Positions 12,792 through 30,238 of a stretch of DNA of 64,000 nucleotides are shown here, in pieces. A model generated the notes under the pieces. It made no database searches and was not told the origin of the DNA. It was given only the letters and a program-made list of their open reading frames with translations. Position 1 is the stretch's first letter. The number at the start of each line of letters is the position of its first letter. Location: contig CAVWLP010000002.1 in the NCBI GenBank assembly GCA_963755915.1, positions 3,904,001-3,968,000 of the forward strand, written 5' to 3'. Position numbers and translations under genes: made by a program. Source of the stretch: an uncultured Phycisphaerales bacterium. Its GTDB lineage: Bacteria > Planctomycetota > Phycisphaerae > Tepidisphaerales > Tepidisphaeraceae.

Positions 12792-12946
12792 GAGTCTATT
12801 CAATCCCGGCCTGAGAGCAATCCGCAACCGGGGCCCTTCGCTTCCGGCTTCGGTCGCAGAGTCTATTCAATCCCGGCCTGAGAGCAATCCGCAACGGATG
12901 ATCCGCCGCATAGCTGGCGCTGGCCGAGTCTATTCAATCCCGGCCT
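12792..12946 (-). CRISPR. CRISPR array: two full 37-bp repeats, one 21-bp truncated repeat, two 30-bp spacers
   Basis: Repeats at 12792..12828, 12859..12895 and partial 12926..12946. Minus-strand repeat GTTGCGGATTGCTCTCAGGCCGGGATTGAATAGACTC; spacers 12829..12858 and 12896..12925. Orientation from the GTT start and tracrRNA complementarity. Confidence 0.93.
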
Positions 12947-13027
12947 TGCCCGCATGGGGCGAACGCCGGAGGGGTGGGACATGGAGTTAGGGGGTGGCGT
13001 TCGCCCCATGCGGGCAAGGCCGGGATT
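12936..13027. repeat. perfect 32-bp inverted repeat (REP/MITE-like hairpin, 28-nt loop)
   Basis: AATCCCGGCCTTGCCCGCATGGGGCGAACGCC at 12936..12967 is the exact reverse complement of 12996..13027. Confidence 0.9.
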
Positions 13028-14088: not shown

Positions 14089-14160
14089 GCGGGCGTAGCT
14101 CAGTGGTAGAGCGTCACGTTGCCAACGTGAATGTCGAGGGTTCGACCCCCTTCGCCCGCT
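14089..14160 (+). tRNA. tRNA-Gly (GCC), CCA not encoded
   Basis: Acceptor stem GCGGGCG/CGCCCGC, D arm GCTC/GAGC, anticodon arm TCACG-TTGCCAA-CGTGA, T loop GTTCGA. Confidence 0.97.
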
Positions 14161-15487
14161 TGAAAACCCCATCCCTGCCGGATGGGGTTTTTTGTTGCCT
14201 ATCCCCGCCAGTTACAAGAGATAACGACGAGTCGCGGTGAGGGGTATCAATGCCGCTGACTGCCGAACAAAACCCTATTGCAGCCGATCTTGTAGTGACG
14301 CTTTCACGCCACCCAGGAACCACGTTGGCATCGGGCCGAGTACTTGGCAACGCCGGAAGTTTCTCCACGGCACCGGCAAGATCAAAGATTCTCGGATCGG
14401 TGTACACGTTCATCGTCAACCGCATATCGGTGTGACGCATCAGGCTCATGGCTACACGCGGAGCAACGCCAGCCTTGGCCAGCAGACTGCCGTAAGTGTG
14501 ACGGAGCGAATGGAAATCCGCTCGGCGGCGGTCCGCATCCTCAAAGGGGATTCCGGCTTTTGTCAGATATCGCTTGTGCGTATCCATCGACGGCAAGGTG
14601 CGGCACACCGATGCGGAATCGTCCGCGTCGCCACGCGATTCTTTCAGCAGCTTTGCCAGGTCATTTCGTAGCGGCAGTGCGTCGCCACGCTTGCCCTTGG
14701 TCGTTTCCGCCCGCAATTGAATGCAGGGCATCGGTGCATCGAGCTTCACGTCACCCCATCGCAATTGCCGCAGCTCATCGCGTCGCAAGCCCGTCCCCAG
14801 GATGATTCGATAGGCGAGTTGATGCCGGGCATGCACCGCGTCCATCAAGGCCGCTATTTCTGTTTGCGTCAGTGCCCGCCGCTGGCGGCGTAAGTGGCCC
14901 GTGGTTTCCACCGGAGTCACATCAGCGAGCGGATGAACCGCGAGGCGTTTCCGTTTGATCGACCATTTGCAGAAGGCTCGTACGGTTTCCAAGTAATGGT
15001 TTTGTGTTCGTGCCCCCATCCGCAGGATTGTGCCGCCATCCTTGGCAGTATGCCCCATCGTGATCGTCGCGGTATCTCGCCAGCGGATGAAGCTATCCGC
15101 CGAGACGCTCGAAAAAGTCTTCCAATCGCAGTCGGCAATCAACCGGGCCATCCGGGATTCGCACAGCCCAACATAAATCTCATCACGCCCCAATTGCCGG
15201 AGTTCCGCAATCCAGTCAGCGACGTGTTCGCAAAGCCGTCGATTCCGGTGTGCCTTGAACGGGTCCTCCAACCCTTCCGCCCCTTGGGCTTTTGCACGCT
15301 CAATTTTCGCCCCCAATTGCTCGGAAGCGGCTCTATCGGTGTAGCCTTTGATCCGTCTGATTCTCCCGTCAACGTTGACCTGGACAGTGTAGAATCGGCT
15401 CTCTGCCCAATTCGCACCCGGAGTGTGCTTCGTGCATTTTCGTCCGTTAGCATCAATCCATCTTCCGCGTTTGAAAATACTGGCCAT
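14114..15487 (-). CDS. tyrosine recombinase/integrase (457 aa in the integrated state)
   Basis: GGAG RBS before ATG 15487; catalytic TGLRRDE, K, HSLRHTY, MRHTD, VYT. The 3' end reads through attL and stops inside the tRNA. Confidence 0.93.
   Translation of the reverse strand: MASIFKRGRWIDANGRKCTKHTPGANWAESRFYTVQVNVDGRIRRIKGYTDRAASEQLGAKIERAKAQGAEGLEDPFKAHRNRRLCEHVADWIAELRQLGRDEIYVGLCESRMARLIADCDWKTFSSVSADSFIRWRDTATITMGHTAKDGGTILRMGARTQNHYLETVRAFCKWSIKRKRLAVHPLADVTPVETTGHLRRQRRALTQTEIAALMDAVHARHQLAYRIILGTGLRRDELRQLRWGDVKLDAPMPCIQLRAETTKGKRGDALPLRNDLAKLLKESRGDADDSASVCRTLPSMDTHKRYLTKAGIPFEDADRRRADFHSLRHTYGSLLAKAGVAPRVAMSLMRHTDMRLTMNVYTDPRIFDLAGAVEKLPALPSTRPDANVVPGWRESVTTRSAAIGFCSAVSGIDTPHRDSSLSLVTGGDRQQKTPSGRDGVFKRAKGVEPSTFTLAT
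14132..14161 (+). repeat. attL core (3' part of tRNA-Gly)
   Basis: TGTCGAGGGTTCGACCCCCTTCGCCCGCTT, identical to 30115..30144. Confidence 0.93.
14163..14193 (+). terminator. intrinsic terminator downstream of tRNA-Gly
   Basis: AAAACCCCATCC-CTGCC-GGATGGGGTTTT hairpin with a T6 tract. Confidence 0.75.
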
Positions 15488-15507
15488 AGGACTCCATCGC
15501 TTTCGCA

Positions 15508-15738
15508 CTATTCTACACCGGCCCGCACCGCATTGGACTCGATCCACGTTTCAACTGTTTCGCGTTTCCATAACCGCAGCTTGCCGCCTATGCCAATGTC
15601 GGCCTTGGGAAATCGCCCCGACGAAATCAGCCGGAACAGGGTGCGGGACGCAATCGGAAGATAATAGCGCCGGATCATCGCCAAGGTCAGTAGAGCAGGC
15701 GGATTTTCCGTTTGCATATGGACCGTTTGAACCTGCAT
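15508..15738 (-). CDS. AlpA/excisionase-like HTH protein (recombination directionality factor)
   Basis: IASRTLFRLISSGRFPKAD...LRLWKRETVETWI; directly upstream of the integrase. Start 15738 or 15717. Confidence 0.8.
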   Translation of the reverse strand: MQVQTVHMQTENPPALLTLAMIRRYYLPIASRTLFRLISSGRFPKADIGIGGKLRLWKRETVETWIESNAVRAGVE

Positions 15739-15984
15739 CGTGAAATCTCCATTGTTCGATAACCGCCGCGCGAAACCGCGCGGCCTTGATTCCATTGACT
15801 GTACAATCTGGTCGGACGCTGCCCGTGGCCGCAGAACACACCCTAAGACTATTTGCGTCAAAGGGCGGAAATCTTTCACTAAAAATCATCAAGCGACCTG
15901 AATAGACCGGCAAATCTCCGGTCGCCGCAACGCGGCGTGTGCCTGTTCGGGTCGAATCCTGTAATGCCAGGGGCCAATTTCTCA

Positions 15985-16014
15985 ATGACATTCCGCCTCA
16001 AATGCCGTTATAAT
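15985..16014 (+). promoter_or_regulatory. putative sigma70 promoter of the TA operon
   Basis: ATGACA-N18-TATAAT, 27 nt before the antitoxin ATG. Confidence 0.55.
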
Positions 16015-16041
16015 GTGCGAAAGCCGTTAAGGATGAGGTCT

Positions 16042-16323
16042 ATGCAGCAAGTTCAATTGCCTGATCAACTCTACCGCGTAGCACAGCGACGCGCGTCGGA
16101 AGCTGGGTTTGCCACCGTCGAGGAATACATTGCCGATGTCGTAACCCAGGATGTCGCCGACGATACGGAGAATTTTGACCATTTGTTCACGCCGCAGGTA
16201 GTAAGCGAGCTTGAACAGATTTCCGCAGCGGCCAAGGCTGGCGGGAAAACTTACACGTCCGAGGAAGTCCGCGAACATTTCCGAAAGAAATCGGACGCAT
16301 GGCGAGCAAGCCACCCCGAATGA
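16042..16323 (+). CDS. putative antitoxin (RHH/ParD-like)
   Basis: GAGG RBS; MQQVQLPDQLYRVAQRRASEAGFATVEEYIADVV; acidic; ATGA overlap with the toxin. Confidence 0.7.
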   Translation: MQQVQLPDQLYRVAQRRASEAGFATVEEYIADVVTQDVADDTENFDHLFTPQVVSELEQISAAAKAGGKTYTSEEVREHFRKKSDAWRASHPE

Positions 16324-16628
16324 TCGTTGACTACACGCCGGAAGCTCTGGCCAATCTCGACGAGATTTGGGATTGGAACGCGGAGCAGCACGGTAGGGTA
16401 CACGCTGATTCGTACGTCGAATTCCTGCGAAAACGAACGGATCGCTTATCCACCGACTATGCCAGCGGCAAACCCGTGCCGACTAATCTATCGCTGTTTT
16501 ATCGCGTGATTCAAAAAAGGAAGAAGCATCACGGCCATATTGTCGTTTACGAAGTGAATGACAACGATGTTGTTCGCATCCTGCGTTATTTCCACACCGC
16601 CCAAGACTGGCAGAACAAGCTCAGATAA
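16320..16628 (+). CDS. RelE/ParE family toxin
   Basis: YTPEALANLDEIWDW...HIVVYEV...VRILRYFHTAQDW. Confidence 0.85.
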   Translation: MIVDYTPEALANLDEIWDWNAEQHGRVHADSYVEFLRKRTDRLSTDYASGKPVPTNLSLFYRVIQKRKKHHGHIVVYEVNDNDVVRILRYFHTAQDWQNKLR

Positions 16629-16689
16629 ACGCGAGGCGAAATAATTTCCCTGCCCCCAATTCCGACATTGTACGCTCCACGAATCGGCC

Positions 16690-17130
16690 TCAAGGTACTA
16701 CTCCATGAGTACACGGAGCCTCTTCTCCGACGGTTCCACCTTGACACCGATTCGCTCCGCTGAAAGCAATTCTGTCCACCATCGGGGGCAGGGAAAAAGA
16801 TGGTTCAGGAAGAAAGACAATCGAATCATCCGGCAGCCAGGCCGACGCGTCGAATTCTGCCACGGCGTCGAATATCGTGACCCGGTACGCACATCCGATC
16901 CGTTTTGGGGCGGAACGCCTTCGCCGTAATCGTTCCCGCACGATAGCCCGAATTTGATCCTCATCTTTTCCGGCAAACCGTTGCGTTTGATATCCGCCTC
17001 CGACACGACCGTAGCGGATGCTGAGTGTCCAATCGTCAAGCAAATCCCGGCCAACGGTGATTTCGTAGCGGCGATGATGATTGAGATCGTCGTTATGCGC
17101 TTCTAATGCAATCGTGAGCAGGTTTTCCAT
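16690..17130 (-). CDS. WGR domain protein
   Basis: NHHRRYEITVGRDLLDDWTLSIRYGRVG; ATG at 17130; divergent from the resolvase. Confidence 0.75.
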   Translation of the reverse strand: MENLLTIALEAHNDDLNHHRRYEITVGRDLLDDWTLSIRYGRVGGGYQTQRFAGKDEDQIRAIVRERLRRRRSAPKRIGCAYRVTIFDAVAEFDASAWLPDDSIVFLPEPSFSLPPMVDRIAFSGANRCQGGTVGEEAPCTHGVVP

Positions 17131-17249
17131 GCGGCGAGATATTTCTCTTGTCCCCTTCGATGAATCGTGATACGCCTTGACCTGACCATAAACTATAGTT
17201 TTTGGCCGATGTAAAGGGGTTTTTGCAAGCAGTTGATTTGTCGAGGGGC

Positions 17250-17870
17250 ATGACCGGAAATCAGGGGGAGGTTTTTGGCCAGGGGGCGAACGACCGTTTA
17301 CGCGTCGGGCTGTATGCACGTGTTTCGACTCACGACCAGCAGACATTGCCACTGCAAATTTCCGCAATGCGGGAATACGCCGAGCGACGGGGCTGGACCA
17401 TCGCAATGCAAATCGAGGAAGTCGGTAGCGGGGCGAAGGATCGACCAGCCCGCGGTGAAATTTTACGAGCCGCGATGCGACGGGAGATTGATATCGTCCT
17501 GGTCTGGAAGCTCGACCGGTGGGGCCGGTCGTTGCTCGACCTTGTGACGACGTTGAAGGAATTGCATGCTGTCGGCGTCAATTTCGTTTCGCTGAATGAT
17601 TCACTGGATTTCACGACCCCGAGCGGTCAAGCAATGGCGGGGATGCTGGCAGTATTCGCTCAATATGAGCGGGACATCCTTCGGGATCGCGTCAAGGCTG
17701 GCATTGCCGAGGCCAGGAAGAACGGTAAGCCGCATGGCAGGCCCGCGACGGTGACCGGCCTTGCGGATGAGGCAAACAAGCTGTTTCTTTCAGGAATCAG
17801 CAAGAGCCAGATCGCCCAGCGGCTCGGTATTGGGAGAACTTCGGTGCGGAGGCTTCTTACGGCTGTATAA
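17250..17870 (+). CDS. serine resolvase/invertase
   Basis: YARVST, SGAKDRP, KLDRWGRS, C-terminal HTH. Confidence 0.92.
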   Translation: MTGNQGEVFGQGANDRLRVGLYARVSTHDQQTLPLQISAMREYAERRGWTIAMQIEEVGSGAKDRPARGEILRAAMRREIDIVLVWKLDRWGRSLLDLVTTLKELHAVGVNFVSLNDSLDFTTPSGQAMAGMLAVFAQYERDILRDRVKAGIAEARKNGKPHGRPATVTGLADEANKLFLSGISKSQIAQRLGIGRTSVRRLLTAV

Positions 17871-18622
17871 TCGTGAGATTTGGGGGGCCGAACACCTGAG
17901 CCAGTGGGCGGATTAGAGTCAGGTCGTGCGTGGCAATGGCGTCAACGCGAGATAAGAAAGCAAGGTAGGTCAGATCTGCAAGATCGTTTGCCAGCTTCTT
18001 ATCTCCCAAGTGGCAGGCGTGGTTTCCGTTAAGACGGTAATGGAACGCTAGAAAATTGCGTAGGCGGTGCCAGTCGTATATCAGCCACCCAGGCTCCGGC
18101 ACGTCCTTCATCTGATAGTATTTCGCAATTGTTTCCCCCCTAACCTTTTTTGCTTCGGGCGGTGCAAACAGCTCAAGGTACTTGTTTGCACCCGTTACAA
18201 TATCTACCGACCTGCAACTTGCGAAAGTGCCGTTGTGTTTTTCATTCCACAGTCGTTCAAGCGCATTTTTGAACTCTTGCGGCTCGTCTCTCTCGAAAAA
18301 GTCTCGAACCTCTTGCACAGCGCCGATCCCTCGTGCGCTGATCGCGGCGTCGATTAATTCCTTACTGTTGGGATGTACCACGTCCTCTATCCGCTCACTC
18401 GTCCTGACTTCTTCTTTGAGCAAATTGACCAGCGCGCGAGTGAGCAAGGTTAAGCCCCGCGAGTTTTTTGAAGTACGTACAAGAATCGCTTCCATCGGAG
18501 CTAGTTGATATCTCGTATATCAATTCAAAGGTAAGCAAAACGGTATATTCGCGGAGGTCATTTTGCACCGATTCGCGTCCGGATGCTCTGAGATAGGACA
18601 AATCAACGATCGCGGTTGGCAT
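17857..18622 (-). CDS. hypothetical protein with PIN-like acidic motifs, frameshift near 18435
   Basis: N-part MPTAIVDLSYL...TFELIYE (18395..18622) plus C-part NDLADLTYLAFLSRVDAIATHD (17857..18495). Confidence 0.5.
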
Positions 18623-18825
18623 GATTCATCCTCCTTTTTCTTCTTGAGGAGTTTAACGTCATTCCCCTTCTCACTTCACCGCCCGGGTTTTGGCCTACCT
18701 GTAAGCGGCTCTCAATCCGACATCCAGGGCCAACTTTATCTTTAAGCAGCAAGGGAATTTGATGAAGGCTCGGCGGTTTGACTGTCCGTTCCAACCTTTG
18801 TGGCCACACCGAATGGGTTGGGTTT

Positions 18826-19455
18826 TCAGATTTGTTCCAGGCATTTGATAATGCTTATGTAGTCTGGTTTATCCTTCATTATTTCGTTCTGCAAGCCGCC
18901 TATTACTGATTGCCTGCGGAGGGCACAGCCGCACCACGCCATATAGACCTGTAGTGCCCCTAGCACAGCTACCGAGATTAAGATCGTGCTGCTAAAGAAG
19001 TGGCTTACGACAACAAACAACGTCACATAGACTGTTAACACCACAATTGCCGTAGGCGTGTTGTGATGCGAAGGTTTTCCGTTGATCCTCTTTTGTCTGC
19101 ATCGGACGTAGGGTATGTGGTTCAGAAGCTCGCCAATAACCGGAGAATCAAGATACCCCTTCACCAGATCGTCGGCGGAAAGGTGCATCTTATTATTACA
19201 ATCGCACCAGCTTGCCACTCCCATTCCGATGCTCAGAATCGCTACGACAATCAAAACGGTGCCGCCGAAAAAGTAGTTTGCCGTGTAAAAGATTGCCGCT
19301 TCGGTTATCAGGAGCAGAATGCCAGAAATCACCATGTCGCGTGATTTATACGGATGGATGTCGTCGAAAGAGTGCTTATATTGATGCACAGCTTCTTTTT
19401 CCTTCGATTTTGCTGCGGACTTGGCGTCCCTGGTGTAGATCGGCAACGCGGGCAA
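18826..19455 (-). CDS. hypothetical 4-TM membrane protein with internal duplication
   Basis: 209-aa ORF with two hydrophobic hairpins, each ending in WCxC; start uncertain. Confidence 0.55.
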   Translation of the reverse strand: MPALPIYTRDAKSAAKSKEKEAVHQYKHSFDDIHPYKSRDMVISGILLLITEAAIFYTANYFFGGTVLIVVAILSIGMGVASWCDCNNKMHLSADDLVKGYLDSPVIGELLNHIPYVRCRQKRINGKPSHHNTPTAIVVLTVYVTLFVVVSHFFSSTILISVAVLGALQVYMAWCGCALRRQSVIGGLQNEIMKDKPDYISIIKCLEQI

Positions 19456-19512
19456 AGCCTATTACAAATACGACGATTGCCGGTTGTGTCTCCAATTGGC
19501 TGATAACAAGCC

Positions 19513-20193
19513 GTGGCGCCGTGCAAAGCCGCCCCAGCGAATTCATGGCCGATAACTGCGGGAAAGGATGGTAATGGCCACATGCAAAGCAGATGTCGCG
19601 AGAAGGCAGCCATGGGGGGTTTGGCTCTGCTCTTCTGCGGCAAATCTCAAGCAGACCGTCTCATCGTCCGAAACAACCTGATGGGAAGTTTTTATTTCGT
19701 GTTCGTTGCGCTGGCTGCGATCGCTGCGTGGAAAATTCCCGCTTTAGTAAAACTCACCCGGGCGTGGCATGCCGGTGTCTCGGCGATGAGGAGGGTTAAA
19801 TCGCTGATGCCTGCACATTCCGAAAACGAAATTTGCGCCGCTAAATGGGTTGTTGAAGATTGGTTGCGGTGTGCGCAGGCACACATGGCTGTTTCTTTTC
19901 TCGAAGAAAAGATCGGCGTGGGTGCAGATGTGATTGGCGATTTGCTGTTTCGATCCTCGGCGGAGGCTATAACTAATGGGCCGGACGAATTCGGCGACGT
20001 TCTCGGCCACACCTTGCTAAAGCCGATAACCGACGCTGACGCGAAGTTAGACATTGCAAACAGAACTCAGAATTGGGAGAAGCTTAAAAAGGAAGCAGAA
20101 ACGCTCGCTATGTGTCTTAGGGCGATGGACGAGGGCCGGAATTCAGCAGCCTGTCGCAATGCGGATTCGGGTGCGGTTGTAGTTAATAGTTAG
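19513..20193 (+). CDS. hypothetical protein with N-terminal membrane anchor
   Basis: 226-aa ORF; likely start 19681 (MGSFYFVFVALAAIAAW). Confidence 0.45.
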   Translation: MAPCKAAPANSWPITAGKDGNGHMQSRCREKAAMGGLALLFCGKSQADRLIVRNNLMGSFYFVFVALAAIAAWKIPALVKLTRAWHAGVSAMRRVKSLMPAHSENEICAAKWVVEDWLRCAQAHMAVSFLEEKIGVGADVIGDLLFRSSAEAITNGPDEFGDVLGHTLLKPITDADAKLDIANRTQNWEKLKKEAETLAMCLRAMDEGRNSAACRNADSGAVVVNS

Positions 20194-20301
20194 TCGAATC
20201 TGTAATTGTCGTTTGGTCTGCCAACCATTCATGTGAGTGACGTGTCCTTCGGTCACCAGTCTCACCTTTCACGAATCAGTGGCCGTTGGCATGCTCGGAA
20301 A

Positions 20302-20679
20302 TTACCAAACGATTTCCTCAATAATTGCCGTCTTTTCATTTGTTTTCAGGCTATTGGGTCTGTCCCCTTCCTGCACCCACGCCACGCGGTGACGGGCGAT
20401 TCCTTGAAACAACCGAACTTCGGGCCGGACTTCTGCGTTCAGACTCCGGCCTTTGATATGAATTACATCGCCGTGAACTTGTAGGGTGATGCCATCCGTG
20501 GGGTTGAATTCGACGCGTTCGATCCATGAATATGCAACGGCCAACACATTGCCGGATTTCTTTCGCAATTCCAGCATCGAGGCCCGCTCGCGAACACCCC
20601 GCAGCCAGCCAAACGAATGAAAATCATCCACGGCGCCACCGTCGCCGGAGGGGGTCAGGTCGAACCGATCCTCACTCAA
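20302..20679 (-). CDS. hypothetical protein immediately downstream of the MobF relaxase
   Basis: 125-aa ORF (FGWLRGVRERASMLELRKKSGNVLAVAYSWIERVEFNP), co-oriented and 23 nt after mobF. Confidence 0.7.
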   Translation of the reverse strand: MSEDRFDLTPSGDGGAVDDFHSFGWLRGVRERASMLELRKKSGNVLAVAYSWIERVEFNPTDGITLQVHGDVIHIKGRSLNAEVRPEVRLFQGIARHRVAWVQEGDRPNSLKTNEKTAIIEEIVW

Positions 20680-20702
20680 GCCCAGGGCGATGATGCAGAA
20701 AC

Positions 20703-23339: not shown

Positions 23340-23584
23340 CTGCCAGTTTACCCCAAGATTGCTTTACAAATCGTTAAGGTGGAGGTGTGCAGATGCACGC
23401 CACCCGCCTACCATCTATTGGCTTGAAAGACCTGATTATTTCATTTTGTGGCGACTGATTTGTGGCGGATTCGCACCGATTCGCGATGCCCTTCGGAACC
23501 CGTGGCCCCGTTTAGACACAATTAGTGGAAAATTCTTGAGTACCCACAGACATCTTCCCTTAGCACTGCTAAGGAGGATTTTCC

Positions 23585-23684
23585 CCGGGAAAACGACTTT
23601 GCGACGAAGCGCAAACCCGTTTCAACGACGCTACGGAGCGTCGTAAATCTGCATAAACGATTCCCCGGAAATACGACCCATCGG
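23585..23684. promoter_or_regulatory. putative parH-like centromere (8-bp-phased ACGA/TCGT-type boxes)
   Basis: CG at 23586, 594, 602, 610, 618, 626, 634, 642, (TG 650), 658, 666, 674, 682. Similar 8-bp-spaced boxes at 23760..23779 and 27590..27625. Confidence 0.65.
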
Positions 23685-23786
23685 CAGACTGCCGATCAGT
23701 GCCATCGCTTCAGAATCTTATTGACCGAACGCGTGAACCGGCGTAACCAGAAATGAGAATCGTAAAATCGTAATCACGACGGATCA

Positions 23787-24425
23787 GTGCCCAAGGTCAT
23801 TGCAATTCTTAACCAAAAAGGCGGCGTCGGTAAGACCACTCTGGCGGTCCATCTGGCTACGGCATTGGCCCGCAAGAAACGGGCCGTCATATTGCTGGAT
23901 GCCGATCCGCAGGGCAGTGCCCTCGATTGGGCCGCCGCCCGGCATGGCGATCCGCTGTTTCCCGTTGTTGGGTTGCCGAAATCATCAATCCACAAGGAAC
24001 TACCCGCCCTGGCCGCCAGCTATGAGTTGGTCATCATCGACGGCCCGCCGCGTGTCTACGATGTGGCCCGCTCGGCCATCATGGCCGCTGACCTGGTATT
24101 GGTGCCGGTGCAGCCGTCACCCTATGACGTGTGGGCCGCCAAGGAAATCATCGACTTGCTGACCGAGGCATCCATTTACAAGCCGAACCTCCGCAAGGCA
24201 TTCATCATCAATCGTAAAATCGCAAATACGGCGATAGGCCGGGACGTGGCCGAGGCCCTCAGCGAGTATCCCATCCCGGTGCTGGAATCGGCTATTTGCC
24301 AGCGGGTTGCTTTTGCGGAAAGTGCCACGCAGGGCCTCACCGTCTATGAATTGGACCCGGAGATGCTGGCCAGCCAGGAGATGGACACGTTGGCCGAAGA
24401 AGTGGAAAGGATGCTCCGCAAATGA
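23787..24425 (+). CDS. parA: ParA/ParF-type partition ATPase (type Ib)
   Basis: NQKGGVGKTT deviant Walker A, DADPQGS, IIDGPP, PVQPSPYD; no N-terminal HTH. Confidence 0.93.
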   Translation: MPKVIAILNQKGGVGKTTLAVHLATALARKKRAVILLDADPQGSALDWAAARHGDPLFPVVGLPKSSIHKELPALAASYELVIIDGPPRVYDVARSAIMAADLVLVPVQPSPYDVWAAKEIIDLLTEASIYKPNLRKAFIINRKIANTAIGRDVAEALSEYPIPVLESAICQRVAFAESATQGLTVYELDPEMLASQEMDTLAEEVERMLRK

Positions 24426-24583
24426 AGAAGGTGACATTTGGCGGCAAACGGCCCAGCACAGTGTCACGGGGCGCGCCAAAACCAGCCAGGGCGGGGCGCT
24501 TCAAAACCGGCCAATGTGCTGACGTATTCTATACCGCATCCGTTCTATCCGACGCAACTGTTCCTTGAGTTATTGGTCCCCGT

Positions 24584-25474
24584 TCACGCCGTCTGGCCGG
24601 CGGATACCCCCACATCAGAAGACAACGGCGGCTCTGTCACGGTGTCTTCCGGGGGGGAGCACCCTTCATCGCCGGCGGTACTCCGCCGTCCTTTTGGATT
24701 TGTCTTTTCCGGTGTCCCGGATTGGCCTGCCGTGAGCGAAGTCGAATGGCCCCCATGCCGAAGGCGGTAGCTCTTGCCGGTGATGTTGATGATCGTGGCG
24801 TGCTGCAGGAACCGATCCAGAATGGCCGTGGCCGCCGGCACGTCGCCGATCAGCTTGGCCCAGTCCTCCAGTGGACGGTTGCTGGTCATCATCGTCGAGC
24901 GGTTCTCGTGCCGGCGCATGACGATCTCCAGCAGGCATTCGCCGCTGCGCCGCGGAAGCTGCTTCATTCCCATGTCGTCGATGATAAGCAGATCAGGCTT
25001 GAGATACCGGGCCAGCGTCTTGTCCTGGGCTCCCAGATCCTCGTCGCCTAAAAAGTCGCGGGCCAGGTCGAAGATGGATCGGTACAGGACCACCAAGCCG
25101 CTCTTGATCGCCTGGTGTCCGATGGCCTGGGCCAAAAACGATTTGCCCACGCCGGGCGGACCCAGCAAGAGCACGTCACGTTTGTCACGAATGAACTGGC
25201 CGGCGGCCAGATCGTGAATCTGTTTGCGTTTGATGGAGGTGTTGAAGGAGAAGTCGAACTCGTCGAGGTTTTTGGTGTCGCGGAACATCGCCGCCTTGAC
25301 GCGCCGGCCGATCTGCCGGCTGGATCGGACGTTCAGTTCATCCTGAAGGATCAGTTCCAAAAACTCACTGTGGTCGAGCCGATTGCCGGCCGCCTCGCTC
25401 AGGCGAACTTCAAGGCTGCTCGCCAGACCTGAAAGCCGAAGTTGCTTGAGCGTCTGCATCAACGAAGGTCTCAT
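24584..25474 (-). CDS. istB: IS21 helper ATPase IstB
   Basis: GPPGVGKS, LLIIDDMG, TSNRPLEDW, AILDRF. Confidence 0.95.
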   Translation of the reverse strand: MRPSLMQTLKQLRLSGLASSLEVRLSEAAGNRLDHSEFLELILQDELNVRSSRQIGRRVKAAMFRDTKNLDEFDFSFNTSIKRKQIHDLAAGQFIRDKRDVLLLGPPGVGKSFLAQAIGHQAIKSGLVVLYRSIFDLARDFLGDEDLGAQDKTLARYLKPDLLIIDDMGMKQLPRRSGECLLEIVMRRHENRSTMMTSNRPLEDWAKLIGDVPAATAILDRFLQHATIINITGKSYRLRHGGHSTSLTAGQSGTPEKTNPKGRRSTAGDEGCSPPEDTVTEPPLSSDVGVSAGQTA

Positions 25475-27272
25475 GGGGTGGACTCCCTTCGGCTCTGCTC
25501 AGGGCAGGCCTGTAAAGGTTGTGCGGCAGGCAAAGCCTCCGCTTGGGTGATTGCGTCGCGTACGAACTGTCCGTAATCGGCCAGTCCGCGGATGATTGGA
25601 TGTTCCTGAACAAACTCGAAGTGTTGTTGAACCGGCGCGCCGTTTTGGTGTTCGATGAGCTGCCGCAGGGAGCGCAGGTGATACGCGCCATGCCCCAGAG
25701 CAATCTCGCAGGCTCGTTCCACGGCCGGTCGCGGCTGCTGATTGGCCAGCGACAGCAGCCCCATCAACACGCGCACGCCTTCGATGCCGCGATGCTGAAG
25801 CATTGACTGCGCCCACTGCGTGGCGTGCGGCCCGATGCATTCGATCCGCTGGAGAAGCCAGGTCGTTCCACGCTCGATGCCGCTGATCTTCTCCGGCAGG
25901 ATATGGGCGTCTTGCGTCGAGAACCTGCCCGGCGGACGCTGCGCGTGCAGAGCGATCGCACGCATCTTCTGATCGAACAGCCGGACCGTGCGCCGTTCCA
26001 CCGCGCCCAGACCCGCTGGCCCAAAAACTCCGGCGGGACCGAATAGTACGCCCCCTTGATCTCCACGTGCCCGTCGCGGTGAACACTGCGCAACGCCTCG
26101 GTGAAAAGATCGAATCGCACCGGCGGCAGAGCCAACAGTGCCGGCTTCTCTACCTGCTCGAAGACTTCCTTCACCTGCCGCCGCGTCGTGCCGTGGATGC
26201 GCGTGTCGGCCACGCTCTTCTCCCACGTCAGCAGATGCGCGTTCTGATCCGAGAGCGAGGCGAATTGCCGGCCTTTGAGAGCATTGCTCTTCACATAGCC
26301 GATGCCCCGCTCGATCTTCCCCTTGTGCCGCGGCGTGTACGGCTTGGTGGGCAGAATGGCGATTCCATAATGTTCGGCGAACGACCGGACCTTGGGACAC
26401 AACTCCGCCTCGAACCAGTCCGCCCGCGTCACCGCCGCGCGAAGATTGTCGATCACCAGCGCTGACGGCATCCCGCCGAAGTGCGTAAAGGCATTTTCCA
26501 GACAACGCAGAAAATCATCGGTCGTCTGCCGCTCCACCGCCTCGGCGTACCCCTTGCGGCTGTGGCTCAGCACAATGCGGAAGACCCAGGTTGCTTTGCG
26601 TTTGCCGTCAGGACCGACCAGGGCGCACCCCGGCCGAAGTCCACCTGCGCCTCGGCTCCCGGCTCGCATTCCATCCGGCGAAAGGGCGCCGGCGCGGCAG
26701 CCGAGAGCTTCTTGATGAACCGGCGCACGCTGTAATAGCTGCCGGCATAGCCGTGATCGCTGGAGATGTCTTGATAAATCCGCTGGGCCGTCAGCCCGGC
26801 TTCCAACTTCTGAACAATGACCTCACGCCAGGGCGATGCCGTACTGACCGACCCGATGGGCGCGCCGGATAACCCGGTGGGCGCGCTCTCCGAGCCGCCT
26901 GCGGCGAGCACCGTCGAGCCGCCTGCGGCGAGCACCGTCGAGCCGCCTGCGGCGAGCACCGTCGAGCCGCCTGCGGCGAGCACCGTCGAGCCGCCTGCGG
27001 CGAGCACCGTCGAGCCGCCTGCGGCGAGCACCGTCGAGCCGCCTGCGGCGAGCACCGTCGAGCCGCCTGCGGCGAGCACCGTCGAGCCGAGGGCGCGCTG
27101 GCCGGTTTTGAATCCGATCCGGGCGCCGCAGGATCGCCGCCCGACAACCGGATGTGGCGTCCAACGGTCTCCCGGTGAACGCCGAGTTGGCGGGCGATGT
27201 TCCGATTGGACCAGCCGCTGGCGCAAGTGCCAAAATTGCTTGTACTTCCGCCATCTTGAGTTGATTGGCCAT
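25471..27272 (-). CDS. istA: IS21 transposase IstA, several frameshifts
   Basis: MANQLKMA N-terminus, EPGAEAQVDFG, LSHSRK, IDNLRAAV, KGKIERGIGYVK across ORFs 26567..27307, 25764..26669 and 25471..26505. Confidence 0.9.
26891..27089. repeat. 24-bp tandem repeat x8.3 inside istA
   Basis: CGAGCCGCCTGCGGCGAGCACCGT, eight perfect copies 26891..27082; encodes GSTVLAAG. Confidence 0.95.
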
Positions 27273-27627
27273 CCCACCATTGGCTTGCGGCAACCGCCGA
27301 AAGCCAAGGTCGATAACCCAATCTCCTGTGCCTCAAAATGGCCGGTTTTGGCGCGCCCTCAATTGGCCGGTTTTGCGCGCCCCATGACAGCACCGCACCA
27401 ACCGGCAATGCCGACGCTTGGGTACATAACCGAGAGGCAGGGGAGCCGGAACCCATGAAGCGGCTCACTATTGACGTGCCGCTAAGCCTGCACAAGCGAA
27501 TCAAGAGTCAGTGTGCGATTGAAAACCTCATCATGGCGGATGTTGTCCGCGACTTGCTGGAAAAACGATTCCCGCCCGGCGGGCCACAATCGTAAATACG
27601 ATTTGTCGTGAATACGACGATACGGCT

Positions 27628-28248
27628 TTAGTTGTTGACAGGTTCCGGCAGGGCAGGGGCCGGTAATGCCAGAGTATCGTCGAGCGGCAATTCCTGCTGG
27701 CGGCTCGCGCCCTTCAAATGGTACGTCCGCACGAACGCGAGCCGGTCCCCGTTGAACATGAAACGTATGTTGATGAAGAAGACGCCGTCGCTGGTGCTAC
27801 GGTAAAGGAATTCTTTTTCGAGCAATTCACGCAGGCCCCGGCGGAAGGTGCGTTCATTCAAGCCGCGATCCTGTGCCATGTATTGGCTCAGTTCGATCTT
27901 GTCATTTCCGTGGTTTTCCCTGATTTGGTGGTAAACCAGTTCAAAGACCGCCATGCCCGATTTGGAAAGCCCGCAGGCTTGTTTGATGCCGTCCAGAAAC
28001 AGTTTCACGAACCGGCTGGCGTCCACTTCCTCCTGCCACCAGAAGCCCATGCCGCCGATGCCTTTGATTTCGCCGGTGCCGTTGTCCACGATGACGGCAG
28101 CCTTGCCACCAGGCACCTCGAAACGCTTCTGTCGCGTAGCCAGACCATTTGCCGGTGGCAGGCTGGGATTCTCACGATACACCGGGAGTCCGCGTTTCGT
28201 GGCGACATGGTTGGTTTCCGCTCGCAACTTTTGTCCGTTTTCGGCCAT
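27628..28248 (-). CDS. RepL-like plasmid replication/maintenance protein
   Basis: YRENPS, EEVDASRFVKLF, winged-HTH NERTFRRGLRELLEKEFL, FFINIRFMFNGDR; ATG at 28248. Confidence 0.78.
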   Translation of the reverse strand: MAENGQKLRAETNHVATKRGLPVYRENPSLPPANGLATRQKRFEVPGGKAAVIVDNGTGEIKGIGGMGFWWQEEVDASRFVKLFLDGIKQACGLSKSGMAVFELVYHQIRENHGNDKIELSQYMAQDRGLNERTFRRGLRELLEKEFLYRSTSDGVFFINIRFMFNGDRLAFVRTYHLKGASRQQELPLDDTLALPAPALPEPVNN

Positions 28249-28315
28249 TTTACCCCCTCTTTTTTGGTCAGGAACTACCAGCACCCTGTCACTATTCGGC
28301 CAATTTTGCAACTGG

Positions 28316-28517
28316 TTTTTGACCGTTGACGACCACAAATTGTCCGTTCTCGGACAGAAACTGTCCGTCGCGATCCAGATAAATCAAAGCGTTAAGCCGT
28401 TCCTCTTTCTTATACTAAAAAGCCTCTTTTTTTTGCCCCGACGCCGCGCAATGCAATTGAGCGCCGTAGGCGGCGGGGCCAAACCTTCCTGATGAGAACG
28501 CGATGCCCTGTGGATAA
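28316..28517. promoter_or_regulatory. putative plasmid origin (iterons, AT-rich tract, DnaA box)
   Basis: TG(A/T)CCGT at 28320, 28341, 28362 (21-bp period); AT-rich ~28405..28435; TGTGGATAA (=TTATCCACA) at 28509..28517. Confidence 0.6.
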
Positions 28518-28582
28518 GCCGTGCAACGAACAGATGAGTCCGGTGCCAATCAGCACCGCTTTACCGTGTGGAACGGAGACGC

Positions 28583-29821
28583 TCAGCAGAAGAACTTAGG
28601 AGAGAGCCATTTCCTGAGCATGCGTTTGCCCGGCACCTCGATGATGCGATAGGTGCAAGTGGCCGCGACGGTGGTGACAACCAAGTAAAGAAGCAGTTTC
28701 AGGAGCGACACGGCGTATGCGAGCGTCGATGGAACATACGCGACGTATTGGGGCAGTACGTTGCTGAAAATCCAAAACTGCACGATGTAGACCGAATAGC
28801 TGATTTCACCGCCACCCTGCATGGCATGCGTGCTGCACAGTCGGGTCAGCAGGTTCGGGTGCCGGGAAGAGGCGTAGAGGAGGTACGCCAGAAAAGGCGC
28901 CCATCCGAAATTGTGTGCGAGGAACGGCAAAAAGCTTGTCGCAGGTAACAGGCCCGCGTCGCCAATCGCCAGGATGGCGATGGCTGCGAGACAGCAGAGG
29001 GAAAAAAGACCGCTGTGCCTGCGGCCACTCGGCGACTCGCCGCTGTGCTGAGTGAGCATGTACATTCGGGCGGCGAACGAACCCAAGATGAACTCGCCAA
29101 GCCGCACGTAGGGTGAGGCGTAGGTGAACCAGTTCCAGACATCCCCGCGGCCGGTAATGGCGAGGGCGGAGAGAAACGCCGTCACCTCCGTTTGTTTTGC
29201 AAATAGGGCGGCGAGAAGCGGAAAGCAGCCAGCCGAAAGCAGGATGGCGTTGCGCCGGATTTGAGGGATGGAAGCGGTGCGCCGGGGACGGCGGATCAAG
29301 TACAGGGCGAAACACAGGTAGAAGAAGCATTCGGTGCTGATAGACCAAGCCGGGCGGAAGGTAACCCACTGCACGTTCCACCAGCTCTGTGTCAGCGTGA
29401 AATAGCTGAGCTTCTGTGGCCAGGTGGCATGGCGGAACAGCGGCTTGTAGTTCTGACGACTGCACAGAAGGAATGTGATATAGAGCGGATAGAGTCGGGC
29501 GAACCTCGCCACCGCAAAGTCGCGAGCGGCCTGTCGCCAAGGCAGCCGAACGAAGCGGTCATAGTAGCCGTAGGTGATGACAAAGCCGCTGAGCACAAAG
29601 AAGAGCGACATGCCCAGGTGGGCAAGGCACACCACGTATTTGTGAGCGACAGAGTCCAATTGGCCGTAGGCGAATGTGGTGTCAGCACTGTGGGACACCA
29701 AGACCAGGTACGCGGCGATCGCTCGAACGCCGGTCAGATGGGGAATCGGCGGTCGCTTTACATATCCCGAGTTGGCCATGTCAATCGCGTCGAGGGTGTG
29801 TTGCTCGAATCGGCTTAGCAC
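28583..29821 (-). CDS. acyltransferase-3 family (OafA/YrhL-like) O-acyltransferase
   Basis: LTGVRAIAAYLVLVSH, FFVLSGFVI, RFARLYP, WSISTECFFY, GEISYSVY; start may be 29779. Confidence 0.9.
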   Translation of the reverse strand: MLSRFEQHTLDAIDMANSGYVKRPPIPHLTGVRAIAAYLVLVSHSADTTFAYGQLDSVAHKYVVCLAHLGMSLFFVLSGFVITYGYYDRFVRLPWRQAARDFAVARFARLYPLYITFLLCSRQNYKPLFRHATWPQKLSYFTLTQSWWNVQWVTFRPAWSISTECFFYLCFALYLIRRPRRTASIPQIRRNAILLSAGCFPLLAALFAKQTEVTAFLSALAITGRGDVWNWFTYASPYVRLGEFILGSFAARMYMLTQHSGESPSGRRHSGLFSLCCLAAIAILAIGDAGLLPATSFLPFLAHNFGWAPFLAYLLYASSRHPNLLTRLCSTHAMQGGGEISYSVYIVQFWIFSNVLPQYVAYVPSTLAYAVSLLKLLLYLVVTTVAATCTYRIIEVPGKRMLRKWLSPKFFC

Positions 29822-29934
29822 ATCCTTTGACGAATCCGCAAGCGGTTATCGGTGGCTCGGTGCTTGTCGCATCAACGGATTGTAACTGCTTGGAATCGTC
29901 CCCGCTTAGATTTGCAGTATCGTTGCCAACTGAA

Positions 29935-30114
29935 CTAAAGCGATGCCTTGACCATCGCCACAATCCCGGATTTAATCGCCTTGTGGAGAGTTGGCCACGC
30001 AAGAGCCACGGCCAAGAAATCCTCATCCATCGGAAATGGCAACGAGGGAGGTGGTGCCGCTTTCACGCCACCCGTTTCCGAAATCGCTTTATTTCCGCCG
30101 GAATTCTCGGGTTT
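29935..30114 (-). other. detached 3' end of the integrase gene (59 codons), in frame with int across attP
   Basis: Same frame as int through the att core; translates KPENSGG...DEDFLAVALAWPTLHKAIKSGIVAMVKASL*. Confidence 0.75.
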
Positions 30115-30144
30115 TGTCGAGGGTTCGACCCCCTTCGCCCGCTT
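30115..30144 (+). repeat. attR core (duplicated tRNA-Gly 3' fragment)
   Basis: Identical to 14132..14161. Confidence 0.93.
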
Positions 30145-30238
30145 TCAGGTTTTTCGCAGTCACTTCTCGCTACCGATTCCGAGTTTCATTTTTTGTTCGA
30201 CCACTGCTACACTGCCCCCGACTTAAATTTGGAGACTC

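Follow-up and report, generated by a model that had tools for sequence, protein, structure and literature searches.

Where does an integrase gene end when the site at which its product recombines lies within the gene itself? The question is raised by a 64,000-nt stretch of DNA from an uncultured Phycisphaerales bacterium (the window), which carries a 15,983-bp integrative mobilizable element bounded by a tRNA-Gly(GCC) gene and an exact 30-nt direct repeat whose copies (14132-14161 and 30115-30144) are spaced by the same 15,983. The element has int, attL and attR at the tRNA gene, a TrwC relaxase, ParA, and a RepL-like gene and is classed as integrative and mobilizable on these grounds; the ORFs of its 16 kb include no gene for type IV secretion. 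Apart from the integrase gene, its features are as follows:

14089..14160, plus strand: tRNA-Gly (GCC), the integration target (ARAGORN); once integrated, the element provides the 3′ part of this gene
14132..14161, no strand: attL copy of the 30-nt core (identity segment; repeat family D6); the empty-site joint is 14131 to 30115
30115..30144, no strand: attR copy of the 30-nt core (repeat family D6), at the empty-site joint
14162..30114, no strand: body of the integrative mobilizable element (ORF and domain calls)
14164..14195, plus strand: terminator-like hairpin and T-run directly 3′ of the tRNA (stems 14171-14188 and 14173-14187; inverted repeat 14162-14175/14179-14192)
15508..15879, minus strand: putative excisionase/HTH gene, next to int on its upstream side (HTH_17 at E 1.1e-5, narrowly short of the Pfam cut-off)
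16299-16628: ParE toxin
17202-17870: resolvase
20703..23339, minus strand: TrwC-type relaxase with helicase domain, for mobilization (PF08751, E 1.8e-71)
23787-24425: ParA
24454..27387, no strand: IS21-family insertion (IstB intact; istA frame broken, with a 24-nt tandem array)
27628-28338: RepL-like gene
28583-29821: acyltransferase

The resolvase is a serine resolvase, and the product of 15508..15879 also matched the phrog_66 excisionase (E 1.4e-5) and TIGR01764 (E 0.0048). Comparison with metagenome contigs revealed a variant of the element without the IS21 insertion, in which 24453 is joined to 27388, and the exact empty site was recovered as a 719-nt metagenome contig from the same sample that fuses 14131 to 30115. 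No contig spanning the circle junction of this element was found among the metagenome contigs, which drop rare forms.

The original prediction placed attP inside int and proposed a longer integrase in the excised form, and both points held. The core at 14132-14161 falls within the ORF 14114-15487, downstream of the catalytic tyrosine, as it does in homologues, and the arms joined in silico were translated into a product of 511 aa as opposed to the 457 aa of the integrated form. The parts of the gene are:

14114..15487, minus strand: integrase gene, integrated form, 457 aa plus stop (PF00589 and phrog_1 matches)
14393..14875, minus strand: integrase catalytic domain, aa 205-365 (Pfam Phage_integrase)
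14162..14392, minus strand: linker from catalytic domain to core, aa 366-442, which doubles as the P′ arm of attP
29935..30114, minus strand: alternative C-terminus of 59 codons and a stop, which continues the int frame across the core and is joined to int solely in the excised circle
29944..30027, minus strand: conserved tail motif (alignments A1 and A2, codon analysis, profile searches)
30145..30147, minus strand: in-frame host-side TGA that closes the tail frame when integrated (read from sequence)

The minus-strand ORF itself spans 14114..15547; the 457 aa are counted from the ATG at 15487 (15487 to 14117), the start common to int homologues. Window Int matched PF00589 over aa 205-365 (E 2.7e-20, 73.3 bits, cut-off 27.1) and the phrog_1 integrase (E 1.2e-37), and the catalytic residues R218, H309, R312, H335, and Y345 (P0197 numbering) were invariant in 22 aligned sequences including window Int. 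In the integrated state, the last five codons and the stop (14114-14116) are derived from the tRNA and host, with the stop lying within the tRNA. At attR, the tail frame is open from 30114 to 29938 (59 codons) and stops at 29935-29937; the remaining two frames close after 16 and 7 codons. The 511-aa product could be aligned over its full length with P0197 (its residues 1-510 with 1-510 of the 513 in P0197). As far as sequence can tell, the gene is split by the att core, its tail is stranded, and a 511-aa gene is predicted on excision. In the window alone, a 59-codon continuation could arise by chance (at 36% of positions, 59 or more stop-free codons follow, and (1-f)^59 = 0.26), so that its significance comes from comparative data.

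The tail might be a separate small gene or regulatory peptide at the far end of the element, its frame match with int being incidental. Gene callers do predict it as a stand-alone small ORF (45-180 aa in the best 150 of 10,732 profile matches), a GTG start in the window would yield a 43-aa ORF (29935-30066), and a few small ORFs bear two or three motifs. The relatives argue otherwise. Their int ORFs extend about 90-110 aa beyond the catalytic Tyr and terminate within tRNA genes (Gly-GCC, Gly-TCC, Gln, Lys, and Leu), and the int frame ran uninterrupted into the tail in 21 of 24 resolvable int/far-end pairs in the same order, against one-third expected (binomial P(>=21 of 24 | 1/3) = 6e-8, a value that treats the relatives as independent, which they are not). 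The 28 pairs examined cover several tRNA targets and several core reading frames: all six in frame in a first set (those with attR found among 14 sequences searched), all five in a second set from the window's own genome (the window's pair being also one of the first six), and 11 of 18 in a third. Four pairs (G069, G025, G101, and G013) could not be resolved. G026 and G132 have the same tRNA-Gly core as the window and read it in another frame; their tails still match their own int frame. The three exceptions were a tail out of the int frame by one (G052:C43), a frameshift just past the catalytic domain with the downstream piece in frame with core and tail (G010:C4), and in-frame stops (G097:C1). 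At two contiguous int-core-tail junctions, the tail lies in another frame, which we interpret as a tandem array of unlike elements (G118:C9, locus L091) and an indel (G011:C8). The open tail frame also usually begins in tRNA-derived core or host DNA, with no common start, a further point against a gene of its own.

Contiguous int-tail proteins exist in nature, which likewise speaks against a separate gene. Among the matches listed, 26 of 120 motif-bearing longer proteins were PF00589 integrases of 501-641 aa, and these 26 have a tRNA-antisense-like peptide between the catalytic domain and the tail. Five of the 88 near-full-length close homologues of window Int (45-52% identity) were 505-518 aa long and carried the tail. 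One long int stands on a circular contig: an IMG/VR contig of 9,200 nt has a 99-nt terminal overlap (giving a 9.1-kb circle), and a complete long int spans its ends. This contig has no tRNA gene; a 17-nt match to a tRNA D-arm lies inside the 3′ part of int. We regard a separate small gene as highly improbable.

Could the conservation around attP instead reside in the DNA only, in arm-type sites and the tRNA terminator, with open frames as by-products of G+C richness and an integrase that ends soon past its catalytic domain? Long open frames are common in the window, and part of the linkers is plainly constrained as DNA. They hold a repeat:

14295..14315, no strand: P′ copy of a 21-nt direct repeat (D18), candidate arm-type integrase site, inside the int linker
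30054..30074, no strand: P copy of the same repeat (D18), candidate arm-type integrase site, inside the tail linker

The two copies are read in different frames. Eight of ten elements had an element-specific 18-29-nt direct repeat on both arms, within the int coding arms, some 114-183 nt ahead of the core and 41-62 nt beyond it, above all 100 shuffles. The terminator-like hairpin (14164..14195) is element-borne and antisense within the int ORF, and the matching peptide segment is conserved in homologues. Arm repeats differ among elements, however, whereas the tail motif is common to them, and of 25 homologues inspected, those not otherwise broken all read on from the catalytic domain to the tRNA without a stop. 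The tails of relatives carry W-P-x-L-P...A-G-I-L-A-M-V, and the consensus is D-x-D-[LF]-x-x-V-x-x-A-W-P-x-L-x-x-x-I-[KR]-x-G-I-x-A-M-V-K-A. Across 30 tails, pairwise nucleotide difference at codon positions 1, 2, and 3 was 0.39, 0.26, and 0.59, so that the third position varies most; Trp was present in 30 of 30, and the invariant Leu was encoded by six different, synonymous codons. The closest tail pair (G000/G124; three synonymous and nine non-synonymous codon changes) was uninformative. This codon pattern indicates that the motif is under amino acid-level selection, and conservation of DNA alone is exceedingly improbable. Several expectations of the original prediction are borne out here: that homologous tails would lie in the cognate int frame, that they would be conserved as amino acids, and that the tail is a real coding segment, which annotation either misses or calls an orphan small ORF.

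An att site within int, for which Mx8 and SSV had been cited, does have precedents in print. In Mx8, attP lies within int, and integration creates a new 3′ end and modifies integrase specificity, as stated in PMC6070905. Mx8 (where the integrase gene is called intP in the phage and intX in the prophage) and the element described here have in common a tyrosine integrase gene with the attP core in its 3′ part, past the codon for the catalytic Tyr, a tRNA target read antisense in the int ORF, and a new, shorter 3′ end after integration; a small HTH gene, uoi in Mx8, stands directly upstream of int in both. The attP of Mx8 reportedly needs arms that flank the core on either side and lie within int, and phage Mx9 has been reported to be similar. 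In Mx8 Int, the tRNA-antisense-like peptide is followed by about 110 more residues. The carrier here is a mobilizable element and not a phage, and the arrangement extends through the family and the phylum, with a terminal module that its members share. We detected no homology to Mx8 Int beyond the catalytic motifs (BLASTP E 0.68), Mx8 was absent from the matches of a tblastn search of the phage collection at 1e-5, and the Mx8 tail did not match the W-P-x-L-P profile (hhalign probability 0.1). Judged by sequence, the mechanism is that of Mx8 (intP/intX), with a family and a tail that are not homologous to those of Mx8.

Other systems were compared. SSV-type integrases of Sulfolobus fuselloviruses have att inside int and a gene interrupted by integration (PMC5861418). 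They are archaeal with a non-canonical active-site tetrad, and there the gene is interrupted, whereas here the C-terminal module alone is exchanged; we rejected this type, as integration leaves the catalytic domain (aa 205-365) joined to the N-terminus and the promoter. In BPs-type mycobacteriophages, attP lies in a coding sequence, free and integrated genomes make different protein forms, and integration removes a C-terminal segment (PMC3694055). In those phages it is the repressor gene that is split and a degradation tag that is removed; here it is int that is split and a conserved ~ 30-aa motif that is removed. Integration-dependent immunity was rejected since int is the split gene and there is no fixed extreme C-terminus beyond the motif. 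Like lambda-type heterobivalent integrases, window Int is extended at its N-terminus, ahead of the core-binding and catalytic domains, with direct repeats at fixed distances on both arms and an adjoining putative excisionase; unlike in the lambda type, both arms lie inside the integrase coding sequence, and the repeats are candidate arm sites.

Sequence and comparison show that int spans attP, so that integration removes the tail and excision restores it. We propose that the long form is integration-proficient and the resident form weaker or excisionase-dependent, and we hold this account as a whole to be probable. In the free form, the order would be N-terminal and catalytic domains, a ~ 75-aa linker (P′ arm) holding the arm-type repeat and the terminator that the element donates to the tRNA, the 30-nt core, a ~ 30-aa linker (P arm), and the conserved ~ 30-aa W-P-x-L-P module. 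Recombination of attP with attB would cut int in the core and give a 457-aa enzyme with five tRNA-derived end residues, leaving the last 59 codons 16 kb off at attR behind a host-side stop; excision would rebuild the 511-aa gene. By analogy with IntP and IntX of Mx8, the long form may be the integration-proficient enzyme that the free circle makes, say when mobilization has brought it into a new cell, and the truncated resident Int may be less active or reliant on the upstream HTH/excisionase, so that integration would turn down its own enzyme and stabilise the inserted state. The role of a directionality or stability switch, which the original prediction gave to the tail, would likewise follow from the Mx8 analogy.

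A one-shot version, in which the long form is the sole working integrase and the resident copy a dead by-product, the element being locked in or needing another recombinase, is unlikely in our estimation. The short form retains an intact catalytic domain and an intact helix behind the Tyr, the empty site in the same sample is exact, and the Mx8 prophage form is not inactivated according to a review (PMC6070905). Many resident copies look decayed by frameshifts or stops (G124, G090, G010, G011, G013, G025, and G097:C1), as such a version would have it, but several of the broken copies come from few-contig, possibly long-read assemblies, in which indel errors are common. The small share of long forms among near-full-length database homologues and the serine resolvase of the element also fit a one-shot integrase.

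Integrase self-modification by recombination has so far been seen as an Mx8/Mx9 curiosity. Here it is the rule for a large integrase family in Planctomycetota, a phylum with poorly developed mobile-element biology and genetic tools, with a conserved module as the exchanged part, and it would offer a testable general device by which integration limits itself. In the literature searched, we found no paper on an attP-spanning int in planctomycetes and no description of the family. The mechanism would also account for thousands of orphan small ORFs and help annotators to locate attR ends and true integrase C-termini; the W-P-x-L-P motif, if this is true, is a ready marker of element ends.

The W-P-x-L motif that the original prediction had placed beside planctomycete att sites proved real and widespread in profile searches: the 10,732 small-ORF cluster matches were mostly orphan and almost all from Planctomycetota. 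The tail had no match in Pfam, NCBIfam, PHROG, or PDB. This helix-hairpin-like module also stands at the end of IS66-type transposases and of a serine recombinase, and for that reason it most likely acts as a portable protein-protein contact, for self-association or host-factor recruitment, and not through docking on the catalytic domain of the integrase. It would be an undescribed protein module common to unrelated mobile-element recombinases. We give even chances to a broader reading, that the module is a Planctomycetota-specific add-on of such recombinases (two or more divergent subfamilies of tyrosine integrases, IS66-type transposase/nuclease fusions, and one large serine recombinase), encoded beyond attP in integrases so that the enzyme "senses" the free or inserted state, and that the > 10,000 orphan clusters are mostly stranded attR stubs. 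The ~ 30-aa motif is followed by 0-59 residues (within 10 in 70 of 80 loci) that vary in number and sequence.

The element is bounded by an exact direct repeat that corresponds to the final 29 bases of a tRNA-Gly(GCC) gene plus one more base. We found no conjugation apparatus among the genes between the two repeat copies and therefore describe it as an integrative mobilizable element. The features used below are as follows (window positions):

14089-14160, plus strand: tRNA-Gly(GCC), the sole tRNA found in the window (ARAGORN)
14132-14161 and 30115-30144: exact 30-nt direct repeat, spacing 15,983 bp (attL and attR cores)
15487 to 14114, minus strand: tyrosine integrase between the repeats, 457 aa, PF00589 at aa 205-365; ATG at 15487, stop at 14114-14116 inside the tRNA
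directly upstream of the integrase: small HTH/excisionase-like gene
elsewhere in the element: ParE toxin, serine resolvase, TrwC relaxase-helicase, ParA, RepL-like protein, acyltransferase and an IS21 copy
14295-14315: first copy of a 21-nt direct repeat, in the int linker, 133 nt before the core
30054-30074: second copy of the 21-nt repeat, in the tail linker, 41 nt after the core

In a 719-nt soil-metagenome contig, position 14131 is fused directly to 30115, and the contig otherwise has no differences. The site therefore also occurs precisely empty, and the element ends exactly with the repeat; the contig's run may be the genome's own source sample, and its independent support is limited to these boundaries. 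A circle junction of the window element was not found among the contigs of four runs, which is uninformative because contigs drop rare forms. The IS21-family copy (24454-27387) has an intact IstB and a broken istA frame, which holds 8.3 exact tandem copies of a 24-nt unit (26891-27089). This copy is absent from one metagenome contig (joint 24453 to 27388), and its depth is ~135 compared with ~5 for the element. About 1 kb upstream of the tRNA lie a repeat with a 67-nt period (2.3 copies, 12792-12946) and a perfect 32-nt inverted repeat (12936-12967 and 12996-13027).

The original prediction held that the integrase frame runs through attL and ends inside the tRNA, that the same frame stays open for 59 codons at attR with an in-frame TGA on the host side, and that the excised circle would encode 511 aa and the integrated form 457 aa. 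ORF reading and an in-silico join of the arms bore out all three points. The start at 15487 is backed by an N-terminus common to homologues, and the ORF extends 92 residues past the Pfam catalytic domain, crossing the attL core. Beyond the attR core, the int frame is open for 59 further codons (30114 to 29938), with the remaining two frames closed after 16 and 7 codons, and the host-side TGA at 30145-30147 shuts the tail frame. The arms joined by script gave the 511-aa product. Taken alone, the 59-codon open continuation means little; at least 59 stop-free codons follow 36% of window positions, and the value predicted from the stop frequency is 0.26. For the window's linker and tail, comparing GC content between codon positions was uninformative.

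We then looked at relatives. Homologues of the window integrase (E ≤ 1e-20) occur in 65 of the 141 genomes of the order. At all 25 homologous loci inspected, the ORF extends past the catalytic Tyr; at those with a detected tRNA (Gly-GCC, Gly-TCC, Gln, Lys or Leu), the int ORF ends inside that tRNA. Most family members also share a short motif, A-T-G-T-D-[GD], after the catalytic domain, which is absent from the window Int. The far ends of the elements were sought in three sets. In the first, the attR repeat was located for six of 14 oriented sequences, the others having too short a contig, no tRNA, or no repeat in the next ~40 kb. All six have an int frame that is open for 50-94 codons beyond the core and ends in a common motif. 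Two of the genomes (G026 and G132) have a tRNA-Gly core frame different from that of the window, and their tails still follow their own int frame. The second set was the window's own genome, where six tail-profile matches and six paralogous integrases (30-37% identical) gave five pairs including the window's, all with a core repeat of 18-30 nt and in frame; their targets include tRNA-Met and tRNA 5' ends. Weak matches of the 59-aa tail in this genome had been considered chance hits, a reading rejected when the profile search and the pairing showed them to be far-end tails of paralogous elements. The sixth tail match (C2:3575371-3575712, minus strand) remained unpaired. It is a weak tail-like motif at the end of a small ORF whose start resembles a signal peptide. 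A seventh integrase, of a different, P0201-like subfamily (G000:C2:3566746-3568107, minus strand), lies 8 kb away and runs antisense through tRNA-Val(GAC), but no repeat shared by the two was found.

The third set, further genomes, contributed 18 pairs: 11 in frame, three not, and four that were left unclassified and excluded from the total (G069, G025, G101 and G013). Among the exceptions, the tail of G052:C43 is off by one from the int frame; G010:C4 has a frameshift right after the catalytic domain, its downstream piece keeping the frame of the core and the tail; and in G097:C1 a repeat of at least 120 nt contains in-frame stops. Of the 28 pairs examined, 24 could be resolved, and 21 of these have the tail in frame with its cognate int, as required by the original prediction, against an expected one third; the binomial probability of 6e-8 is overstated because the relatives are not independent. 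The pairs cover several tRNA targets and core frames. At two loci, G118:C9 (L091 1015-1485) and G011:C8 (L103), int, core and tail are contiguous yet out of frame. Both junctions sit in chromosomal contigs; the former resembles a tandem array that has brought the int of one element up against the tail of an unlike element, and the latter looks like an indel in an already split, decaying int. A 497-aa open frame around the G090 tail was considered as an integrase and rejected as only open host DNA.

A profile built from six tails matched 100 of the 141 genomes, often several times per genome; the tally counts the window's genome and G062 (flagged unpublished). At the 30 best loci, a tRNA-derived peptide precedes the motif, the motif is near the end of the open frame, and the frame is short (60-160 aa) in 27/30. 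The consensus is D-A-D-L-x-x-V-x-x-A-W-P-x-L-P-x-A-x-R-A-G-I-x-A-M-V-K-A-A. Conservation at the amino-acid level, also anticipated, was confirmed by pairwise nucleotide differences of 0.39, 0.26 and 0.59 at codon positions 1, 2 and 3. The motif Trp is present in all 30 tails, one invariant Leu is encoded by six codons, and the conserved Ala and Gly by four codons apiece. Between the window tail and that of G113, third positions hold 20 of 41 differences, and synonymous codon changes number 11 in the int frame and 7 and 3 in the others; the closest pair (G000/G124) has too few differences for a synonymous/non-synonymous test. By this codon-level evidence, the tail is a translated, conserved segment whose terminal motif is under protein constraint. 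Neither Pfam, NCBIfam, PHROGs nor the PDB sequences contained a significant match to the motif, and a weak similarity to LdrD/Ldr_toxin (E 0.4 and 0.018) was discounted as an effect of composition.

The linkers on both sides of the core carry further signals. The two 21-nt copies are read in different frames, and an element-specific direct repeat of 18-29 nt flanks the core in eight of ten elements tested, 114-183 nt before and 41-62 nt after it. The repeats, often made up of two short sub-repeats, scored above all 100 shuffles and are candidates for arm-type sites. Immediately ahead of the core, the sequence is antisense to a terminator-like hairpin and T-run located after the tRNA, and the element therefore supplies the tRNA 3' end and terminator alike. 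The peptide matching the terminator antisense is kept in homologues; with the repeats, this places the linkers under mixed DNA and protein constraints.

The motif is not confined to this order. A pattern scan with one genome per species confirmed 236 of 324 matches. The best 80 are almost all from Planctomycetota MAGs (Phycisphaerae including Tepidisphaeraceae, Isosphaeraceae, Gemmataceae, Pirellulales, Planctomycetales and Brocadiia), with a few contigs labelled otherwise. Among these 80, the motif lies in an ORF shorter than 250 aa in 78 and at most 10 residues from the ORF end in 70. A tRNA-like fragment occurs within 260 nt upstream in 32 (E ≤ 1e-4) to 49 (E ≤ 0.01); among the 32 stricter matches, 27 run antisense and 27 fall within the motif's own open frame. 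A metagenome scan confirmed at least 464 of at least 598 matches, and the best 80 of its loci plus three viral-contig loci comprised 77 short ORFs, four long ORFs without an integrase and two with a partial integrase.

Searched with the profile, 1.84 billion cluster representatives yielded 10,732 matches at E ≤ 1e-3 (1,127 at E ≤ 1e-10). All of the top 150 measure 45-180 aa and nearly all carry the motif C-terminally, as would be expected of stranded attR stubs that had been called as genes. Some database ORFs (P0002, P0003, P0021, P0055 and P0133) hold two or three motifs in tandem and may be the stacked remains of insertions made one after another into a single site. A single-sequence tail search found no match among longer proteins; the profile alone found them, 127 in number. 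The 120 listed include 26 PF00589 integrases of 501-641 aa with a C-terminal motif, and in every one inspected the catalytic domain and the tail are separated by a tRNA-antisense-like peptide. The joined 511-aa product can be aligned from one end to the other with proteins of this kind, such as P0197 (residues 1-510 to 1-510 of 513). Among the 120 best homologues of the window Int, 88 reach at least 430 aa, and in five of these the tail is contiguous (505-518 aa, 45-52% identical to the window Int); 14 others of at least 495 aa that were inspected end mostly in tRNA-derived or unrelated residues. A 9,200-nt IMG/VR contig is a circle, as it has a 99-nt terminal overlap. When circularised by script, one ORF spans the old ends and encodes a complete, motif-terminated integrase (P0236). 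The circle has no tRNA gene, but 17 nt within the 3' part of int match a tRNA D-arm exactly. To judge from these sequences, the long form exists in nature.

At the level of gene structure, these comparisons show that the int gene spans attP, and that integration swaps the last 59 residues, including the conserved module, for five tRNA-derived residues, with excision restoring them. They also show that the arrangement is selected across a large integrase family. The structural reading of an int gene split by attP is supported. The closest system is Mx8 (and Mx9), which has the same architecture. A review describes attP within Mx8 int, with integration giving a new 3' end and an enzyme that is modified, not inactivated (PMC6070905). 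In Mx8 Int, ~110 residues come after a tRNA-antisense-like peptide, and uoi lies upstream of the gene; Mx8 Int shows no detectable homology to the window Int beyond catalytic motifs (E 0.68), nor does its tail to the window-family tail. SSV-type integrases are interrupted by integration (PMC5861418), whereas the catalytic part of the window int remains whole. In integration-dependent immunity, a repressor is split and a degradation tag removed (PMC3694055). In the window the split gene is int, and what this family loses is a conserved internal motif that variable residues follow. Mechanisms of this kind are already known; what is new is the scale, together with the conserved module and an explanation for very many orphan ORFs.

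By analogy with Mx8, the free circle would encode the full, integration-proficient enzyme and the resident copy a weaker or excisionase-dependent one, stabilising the inserted state; a switch of this kind would be plausible. Six of the 120 listed longer proteins are IS66-type transposase/RecB-like nuclease fusions with the motif (841-1069 aa), and one is a large serine recombinase. The motif terminates these proteins, which are found among P0172, P0208, P0217, P0219, P0223, P0263, P0242 and P0160; in the same set it begins an ORF running into an N6-methylase. Its presence on other mobile-element enzymes suggests a portable module of planctomycete mobile elements. Since it also terminates unrelated recombinases, we speculate that it may be a contact module for self-association or host-factor binding and not part of the integrase fold. 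A 140-aa ORF at G052:C43 (L064:1664-2083), with no Pfam or PHROG match, combines a segment resembling an integrase N-terminus with the tail motif, and may encode a mini-protein with the same partner as the tail.
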